From the sequence record OR845764.1: a DNA stretch of 1,648 nucleotides; one strand, 5' to 3'. The notes under the pieces are model-generated. The model saw nothing but the letters and a program-made list of their open reading frames with translations. It made no database searches and had not been told where the DNA came from. Positions within the stretch are counted from its first letter, which is position 1; each line of letters opens with the position of its first letter. Shown here piece after piece: positions 115-1,648 of this stretch. A program made the translations under genes and the position numbers. The DNA is from Escherichia phage ECO95 1-6-1.

Positions 115-1647
115 TTATTCAGCTGGCAGTGCTATGCGCCACGGAAGCAGTTCGCTGACCCGGTTGACCGGCCAGTCTGCTATGACGCCAAGCACATGGC
201 GAAGGTAGCTTTCTGGATCCACGTCATTCAGTTTGCACGTCCCGATCAGGCTGTACAGTAGCGCTCCCCGCTCACCACCATGATCAGAGCCGAAGAACAG
301 GAAGTTTTTACGACCCAGACTGACCGCCCGCAGGGCATTTTCAGCGATGTTGTTGTCGATTTCCACCCAGCCATCGTTCGCATAGTACGTCAGTGCCGGC
401 CACTGGTTAAGTGCGTACGCGAACGCCTTCGCCAACTCTGAGTGTCGCGACAGGGTCTTCATCTTTTCACGCAACCAGCTTTCCAGGGATTTCAACAACG
501 GTTTCGTTTTTCGCTGACGTTCAGCAAGCCGCTGCTCTGCCGGCATTCCCCTTATATCCGCCTCTATGGCGTACAACTGACCGATCTGCTCCAGGGCTTC
601 TTCCGTCAGTGCTGACGGGATGCGGACGTGCACATCGTGGATCTTTCGGCGGGCATGAGCCCAGCAGGCAGCTTCCGTTATCCCACCATTGCGATACAGC
701 TCGTTGAACCCGGCGTACGCATCCGCTTGCAGCACACCGCTGAAGCAGGCAAGATGAGTCTGCGGATGGATGCCTTTTCTGTCCGGGCTGTAAGCGAACC
801 ACACTGCAGGTGCCAACGCTGACCCTGCATTGCGGTCATCACGAACATACGCCCACAACCGCCCGGTCTTCGTCTTCTTATTACCCGGCAGCAGTACCTG
901 GACCGGGGTATCATCGGCATGGAGTTTGCCGTCAGTCATGACATAGCCATGAAGCGCCTCTTCCAGCGGAGACAGCAGCCGGCAGCATGCATCCACCCAG
1001 CCCGACAGCAGTGAACGCCTCAGCTCCACACCTTGCCGGCCGTATATTTCTGACTGGCGATACAGCGGGGTGTGCTCTGCATACTTCGAGGTCAGCACGC
1101 GGGCCAGCAGCCCCGGTCCGGCGATACCCCGCTCGATGGGCCGCGAAGGTGCAGGTGCCTGCACGATGGCATCGCACTGAGTACAGGCATGTTTTTCCCG
1201 TACCGTCCGGATAACCCGGAAGGCGCTACGCATCAACTCCAGCTGTTCGGCGGTATCCTCGCCCAGATAGCTCAGTGAACCGCCGCAGTTCGGGCAGCAC
1301 GGCGCCGCAGGCAACAGTCGCTTTTCGTCACGGGGTAGTGATTCAGGGAACGGCTTACGGGTGCGGGTCTGACGCAACGGACGCTGTACTGCCGGGTCAT
1401 ACACCCTACCAGTCAGCGTATCGCTCTCTTTCTGAAGCCGGTTCAGATCGGCTTCCATTTGTGCGATACGGCGGGAGACTTTTTCGGAACGACTGCCGAA
1501 GTTCATCCGGCGGAGTTTATCCAGCTGCGCCTGCAGATGGTCTATTTCGCGCTCCCGGTTGCTCAGCTTTTCCTGCAGGGCGTGGATCAGCGCTTCCTGT
1601 TCGGCCAGGCGCTGTTTCAGCAGGAAGATGTCGTCAGAAGAGATGTC
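115..1647 (-). CDS. tnpC: IS66-family transposase (TnpC-type DDE transposase), 5'-partial in this window; the longest ATG-initiated ORF is 115..1506 (463 aa)
   Basis: Seen: an uninterrupted minus-strand frame runs from stop TAA (117..115) to the window edge; the first in-frame ATG is at 1506..1504, and 47 further sense codons lie upstream with no stop and no ATG/GTG/TTG. The protein carries motifs I recognise as IS66 TnpC hallmarks: CxxC...CxxC zinc-finger cysteines (C71/C74 and C108/C111, nt about 1174..1296), LHADDT (D198 at 913..915), LQADAY (D262 at 721..723), CWAHARRK, and [14 protein letters not shown] (E389 at 340..342). The upstream 47 codons ([47 protein letters not shown]) have leucine/isoleucine at 3-4 residue spacing, like the TnpC N-terminal leucine zipper. 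Family assignment is from established knowledge of IS66 transposases, not a search. Confidence 0.93.
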
Positions 1648-1648
1648 G
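1572..1648. repeat. Copy 2 of the exact 77-bp direct repeat; part of the tnpC 5' coding region
   Basis: Identical to 1..77. It ends at the last base of the window, so the real extent of the identity beyond the window is unknown. Confidence 0.95.

Follow-up and report, generated by a model that had tools for sequence, protein, structure and literature searches.

The 1648-nt stretch of DNA analysed here (the window) ends within an open reading frame on its minus strand, raising the question of where the encoded protein begins. The first ATG in this frame lies at 1506..1504 and opens a 463-aa ORF (115..1506, minus strand). The first-pass annotation had drawn attention to an open extension upstream of this ATG, encoding a peptide with hydrophobic residues at intervals of three to four, and had proposed that the 463-aa ORF is an under-call whose true start lies beyond the window. 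Codon-by-codon reading showed that the extension is real: the minus-strand frame from 1647 down to 1507 comprises 47 codons with no stop and no ATG, GTG or TTG, and is followed directly by the 463-aa ORF, which continues as MNFGSRSEK.... By itself, the openness of these 47 codons is weak evidence and not significant, as the chance of such a run is about 0.19 (19%) at the base composition of the window (58.7% GC). A protein of 463 aa starting at the ATG at 1506, with the upstream frame being due to chance or forming part of an untranslated leader, would fit both with this figure and with the fact that this ATG is the first canonical start within the window.

The hydrophobic periodicity of the upstream peptide, in contrast, is non-random and speaks against a start at 1506. 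The best heptad register places I9, L16, I23, L30, I37 and L44 at a, and L12, Q19, L26, R33, L40 and L47 at d (numbering of the full-length protein, see below). Hydrophobic residues occupied 10 of the 12-13 core positions, compared with 3-4 of the 29-34 non-core positions, and this pattern was equalled by only 2-23 of 20,000 shuffles, the number varying with the segment used. The spacing pointed out in the first-pass annotation therefore stands up to comparison with shuffled sequences.

The identity of the element provided a more direct answer. When complete E. coli genomes were searched with the window by megablast, 4196 of 5426 gave matches, and the 1571-nt non-redundant unit that it contains was 100% identical to annotated copies of ISEc8, in agreement with exact-substring checks. 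ISEc8, an insertion sequence of the IS66 family, is carried by most genomes of E. coli O157:H7. The copy in E. coli CDC#03-98 (locus L001, 1630 to 4071) measures 2442 bp, the length of the reference element, has GTAAGCG... termini and is flanked by an 8-bp target duplication, CGAAAAAC. It contains tnpA, tnpB and a 1539-nt tnpC; this gene order was found in every identical copy examined, with tnpA and tnpB falling outside the window. The 1571 non-redundant bases of the window align exactly with L001 from 2501. On the minus strand the IS terminus (...GTACGCTTAC) is reached at window position 78, and the same right terminus is followed by unrelated flanks with 8-bp target duplications in four loci (L001, L002, L003 and L004). 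Terminal inverted repeats starting GTAAGCG at both the left and right ends, together with 8-bp target-site duplications (L001 and L003), place the element in the IS66 family. The window can thus be laid out as follows.

1648..1648, minus strand: third base of tnpC codon 2 (AAC, Asn), from its position relative to the annotated CDS in L001
1507..1647, minus strand: tnpC codons 3-49, encoding a predicted helix of heptad repeats at the N-terminus that runs up to the KLRRM motif, from identity to WP_000998048.1
115..1506, minus strand: the remainder of tnpC, running from the internal Met50 as far as its TAA stop codon (117..115), equivalent to the 463-aa ATG-initiated ORF
78..114, minus strand: 3' non-coding end of ISEc8 with its right terminal inverted repeat, a terminus shared with the other loci
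1..77, minus strand: nt 6-82 of another tnpC, that of an outer, interrupted ISEc8, abutting the IS terminus; a repeat of 1572-1648

Compared with annotated ISEc8, the window is identical in DNA sequence over its 1571 non-redundant bases and alike in domain order, stop codon and IS terminus; it differs in that the CDS is short of its initial 5 nt and that the IS end is followed by an extra 77 nt from a second, interrupted copy. We are almost certain that the window carries, on its minus strand, the tnpC (DDE transposase) gene and the right end of ISEc8, that the 47 codons encode residues 3-49 and that the ATG lies 5 nt outside.

The annotated transposase (WP_000998048.1) is 512 aa long and its 1539-nt CDS starts at L001 2496, reading ATG AAC GAC ATC TCT.... 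Window position 1648 corresponds to L001 2501. Since this is the third base of codon 2, the ATG is located 5 nt beyond the window and only two residues, Met-Asn, are missing from the extended translation. The true start is thus outside the window, as had been predicted. The 463-aa ORF is an under-call and the full TnpC is 49 aa longer (512 versus 463), so that the extension anticipated in the first-pass annotation was correct in kind, although its estimate of 50-60 extra residues was slightly high. The longest ORF computed on L001 was the same 512-aa protein as the annotated TnpC.

Could the protein begin still further upstream? Two distant relatives, the TnpC proteins of ISEc23 (537 aa) and ISKox1 (530 aa), do have longer N-termini, which would be in keeping with a start upstream of the annotated ATG and a product exceeding 512 aa. 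However, in L001 there is an in-frame TGA at 2433-2435, 63 nt before the tnpC ATG, and the interval between the two contains no ATG, GTG or TTG and includes the tnpB stop. The TnpC of ISEc8 is therefore not longer than 512 aa, barring frameshifting from tnpB, of which we saw no sign. In addition, the TnpC of ISKpn24 (512 aa) begins at the same position as that of ISEc8. We consider a start upstream of the annotated ATG to be vanishingly improbable. As for direct evidence on the start of ISEc8 tnpC, a search of the accessible literature found no experiment or ribosome-profiling result; the support for the 512-aa start comes from annotation, from ORF logic and from conservation. Two features speak against this start: upstream of the tnpC ATG in L001 a clear Shine-Dalgarno sequence is missing, and the ATG adjoins a hairpin (see below). 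The ATG at 1506 is likewise preceded by no Shine-Dalgarno-like sequence (upstream bases GATAAACTCCGCCGG), a point against its use as a start.

The domain content of the protein bears more strongly on the ATG at 1506. When the 510-aa window translation was run against Pfam with hmmscan, four matches exceeded the curated cut-offs.

1324..1539, minus strand: LZ_Tnp_IS66 (PF13007), residues 37-108, E 4.2e-14, 53.5 bits versus a cut-off of 22.9
1171..1299, minus strand: zf-IS66 zinc finger (PF13005), residues 117-159, E 3.5e-13
271..1131, minus strand: DDE_Tnp_IS66 catalytic domain (PF03050), residues 173-459, E 2.1e-106, 355.9 bits versus a cut-off of 23.1
139..252, minus strand: DDE_Tnp_IS66_C (PF13817), residues 466-503, E 1.1e-16

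A DDE_Tnp_IS66 domain above threshold and an LZ_Tnp_IS66 region followed by zf-IS66 are the features of an IS66-family TnpC. As expected from the first-pass annotation, the LZ_Tnp_IS66 match lay upstream of zf-IS66. It covers profile positions 1-70 of 71 and spans the ATG at 1506; since it starts 11 residues upstream of this Met, the Met is inside a conserved domain. The family model NF033517 of NCBIfam (transpos_IS66) scored 459 bits against a cut-off of 180, and did so equally for the 463-aa and 510-aa versions. This equality might be taken to favour the shorter protein, but because the model begins at residue 92 it cannot tell the two versions apart or flag a 5' under-call. Weak Pfam and NCBIfam matches below the cut-offs (Exonuc_VII_L, DUF4349 and an archaeal SMC-related protein) were attributed to coiled-coil composition.

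Homologous proteins gave the same picture as the LZ_Tnp_IS66 match. In a tblastn search of plasmids with the first 160 residues as query, relatives at 85-93% identity aligned from residue 1 and those at about 55% identity from residue 39. We then compared the TnpC proteins of four IS66 elements: ISEc8 and ISKpn24 (512 aa each), ISEc23 and ISKox1. Over the first ~165 residues, identity to ISEc8 TnpC was 87% for ISKpn24 and 52% for both ISEc23 and ISKox1. All three relatives resemble ISEc8 in having an N-terminal helical region, a KLRRMxFGxRSEK motif, a CxxC zinc finger and a DDE core, and in the location of tnpC downstream of tnpA and tnpB. The Met at 1506, which is Met50 of the full-length protein, was invariant within EREI[DE]HL[QR]AQ[LI][DE]KLRRM[NL]FG[ST]RSEK, so that the motif RMxFGxxSEK, put forward in the first-pass annotation as the end of the N-terminal zipper region, reappears as KLRRMxFGxRSEK across the four elements. 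All four proteins extend further towards the N-terminus by a segment of variable length, with conserved sequence upstream of Met50. In ISKpn24, ISEc23 and ISKox1 the invariant Met is preceded by 49-70 residues; ISEc23 and ISKox1 differ from ISEc8 by 18-25 extra residues in the variable, coiled-coil part of this segment. None of these homologues starts at the position of the Met at 1506.

A structural model is consistent with an N-terminal region that continues through to this residue. AlphaFold2 was run on a single sequence, as a monomer, with the first 170 residues encoded in the window; the model is unreliable beyond residue 88. In the window translation, residues 4-48 came out as one continuous helix (pLDDT 90-96), which is broken at NFGSRS and followed by a further helix at 55-79 (pLDDT 82-94). 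Thus, a confidently modelled helix leads without interruption to the Met at 1506. Given the non-random heptads, the LZ_Tnp_IS66 match that begins upstream of this Met and the invariance of the Met as an internal residue in homologues down to 52% identity, a genuine start at 1506 is highly unlikely. The residue is Met50, a conserved internal position of the 512-aa TnpC and not its start, and the view of the 463-aa ORF as an under-call is borne out by annotation, domain span and homologues alike.

What might this N-terminal region do? Residues 9-47 make up six heptads, more than the at least four consecutive heptads in an uninterrupted (here, predicted) helix that we looked for, and no Pro or Gly occurs within residues 1-49. 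The predicted 45-residue helix with its six heptads has the appearance of a coiled coil. Two of the d positions are polar (Q19 and R33), and the helix is therefore zipper-like rather than a canonical all-Leu zipper; it may form a dimerising zipper. TnpC is thus predicted to start with an alpha-helix of about 45 residues, interrupted briefly at the conserved motif and followed by a second helix, the zinc finger and the DDE core. From general knowledge of coiled-coil and zipper transposases and from the Pfam domain order, we suggest that the heptad helix would most likely serve protein-protein association, either self-association of the transposase in a synaptic complex or docking of TnpA or TnpB; the zf-IS66 zinc finger would most likely recognise the IS ends, and the DDE core would perform catalysis. 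Han et al. reportedly dealt with IS679/IS66 in 2001. Our literature search for experiments on the IS66 TnpC N-terminus or leucine zipper returned nothing specific, and a sequence search of the PDB returned no solved relative of the IS66 transposase.

We next turn to the edges of the window, where positions 1-77 are 100% identical to 1572-1648. Position 78 is the right terminus of ISEc8, and 77..1 on the minus strand is therefore tnpC nt 6-82 placed immediately after an IS end. The 8-bp sequence CGACATCT occurs at 77..70 and again at 1648..1641. Taken at face value, ends that overlap perfectly by 77 nt could mean that the window is a true DNA circle of 1571 bp, such as a deletion circle produced by an IS end attacking its own tnpC, in which the sole tnpC would be 5'-truncated and start-less. 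Indeed, as the first-pass annotation correctly stated, in the closed unit the frame meets no canonical start before its first upstream stop, a TGA at 121..119, and the Logan assemblies hold a contig (SRR8529113_1316, recorded in 7 samples) equal to the exact 1571-nt unit.

However, the junction also exists in linear form. A 100-nt probe across it was found intact in three finished O157-type plasmids, namely pNZRM3614 and the plasmids of O157:H7 strains AC-3 and AC-5; only 3 of 5426 complete genomes have the junction in one piece. All three carry a nested ISEc8 with the same junction and the same 8-bp duplication, CGACATCT, as the window, and the pO157-type plasmid pNZRM3614 contains the entire 1648-nt window without a mismatch (L003 2980-4627). 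In this plasmid an outer ISEc8 (L003 1230-6121, duplication TATGAATC) has its tnpC broken after nt 13, where an inner ISEc8 (L003 2109-4550) is inserted. The inner copy has a left junction of ATGAACGACATCT|GTAAGCG and a right junction of CGCTTAC|CGACATCT, from which its target duplication is CGACATCT. The 77-nt terminal repeat is thus a real junction, formed where one ISEc8 entered the tnpC of a second copy at nt 6-13. Both the duplicated 8 bp and the reciprocal junction on the left are those of an ordinary nested insertion, and the unit, being without a replication origin, would not be maintained as a circle. Together with the length of the overlap (see below), these points make a genuine 1571-bp circle very unlikely. 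The nested insertion in the plasmids differs from the window in that the latter is just a collapsed repeat, without the outer tnpA-tnpB or the plasmid flanks. The inner pNZRM3614 copy (L003 2109-2122) was also observed to have a left terminal repeat that is one base off that of other copies (GTAAGCGTACATCC versus GTAAGCGTACAGCC).

In the outer ISEc8 copy, tnpC is split after nt 13 and has lost its ATG; the start-less closed frame ending at 121..119 therefore has a real counterpart in pNZRM3614. RefSeq/PGAP calls this outer tnpC intact, as a 509-aa protein (WP_115333691.1, L003 4555-6084) with a non-canonical ATC start immediately after the inner IS terminus. This call on a start-less gene is probably an annotation artefact.

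The boundaries of the window can be accounted for by assembly. In the source, a second ISEc8 would sit in nt 6-13 of the tnpC of another copy. The sequence from tnpC nt 6 onwards would then have two upstream contexts, ATGAA or an IS terminus (...GGGCTTATGAA|CGACATCT... and ...GTACGCTTAC|CGACATCT...), and an assembly graph with k=77 would therefore break or loop exactly there. The default largest k of SPAdes is 77, and an overlap of this length is what a repeat loop in de Bruijn assembly is expected to leave. Such a loop would yield the 1571-nt unit plus a 77-nt overlap, that is, 1648 nt. We infer, on general knowledge of assemblers, an origin of the window boundaries in the assembly graph. The Logan contig of exactly 1571 nt fits with the nested insertion too, and the overlap of exactly 77 nt counts against a circular molecule.

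Two further pO157 plasmids, pMB41_1 and p7636-1, carry a self-nested ISEc8. In p7636-1 (L004 1650-6541) an ISEc8 is inserted in tnpA, at IS positions 452-459, with the duplication GATACAGG. In pMB41_1 (L002 1630-5055) a complete ISEc8 comes after IS positions 1-984, and TTTTCAGT flanks the whole. Both were considered as carriers of the window junction and set aside, being different ISEc8-in-ISEc8 arrangements. Evidently, ISEc8 has no immunity against insertion into itself. Separately, contig ABWFGS010000084.1 of another assembly, GCA_044612005.1, has this partial 510-aa gene starting right at its edge (L008 1571-2106). Here the sequence after the IS terminus does not match ISEc8 exactly and encodes a TnpB_IS66 protein; judging from this sequence, ISEc8 may lie in or beside another element of the IS66 family.

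One feature adjoining the start of tnpC, outside the window, is a perfect hairpin, UAAGCCCGG-N8-(A)CGGGCUUA (L001 2472-2495), which abuts the ATG. For the 69-nt region, the folding energy is -20.1 kcal/mol (z = -3.5). In the corresponding place ISEc23 and ISKox1 carry another hairpin, ACCGC-N9-GCGGT, and across the four elements the changes in the hairpin are partly compensatory. Such a structure could control translation of tnpC, or serve as an attenuator between tnpB and tnpC. More broadly, tnpC nt 6-13 and the other internal ISEc8 sites might be preferred self-targets, with self-insertion acting as a brake that inactivates copies on pO157 plasmids, or else a conserved hairpin might gate translation of the transposase. 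With three different nested arrangements and one hairpin as their basis, we regard these readings as very unlikely.

The feature examined here is a known gene of a known and very common insertion sequence, and as such holds no new biology; the correct product is the standard 512-aa TnpC of ISEc8. The value of the result is mainly practical. At this contig edge, an ORF caller that requires a start codon would report a 463-aa IS66 transposase that has lost its N-terminal helix and part of LZ_Tnp_IS66. Likewise, the short contig with a k-mer overlap that a nested IS insertion can produce looks circular, but is not to be mistaken for a circular element. For the family, a self-targeting brake or a hairpin gate, if true, would be new to the regulation of IS66 elements, though modest in scope.
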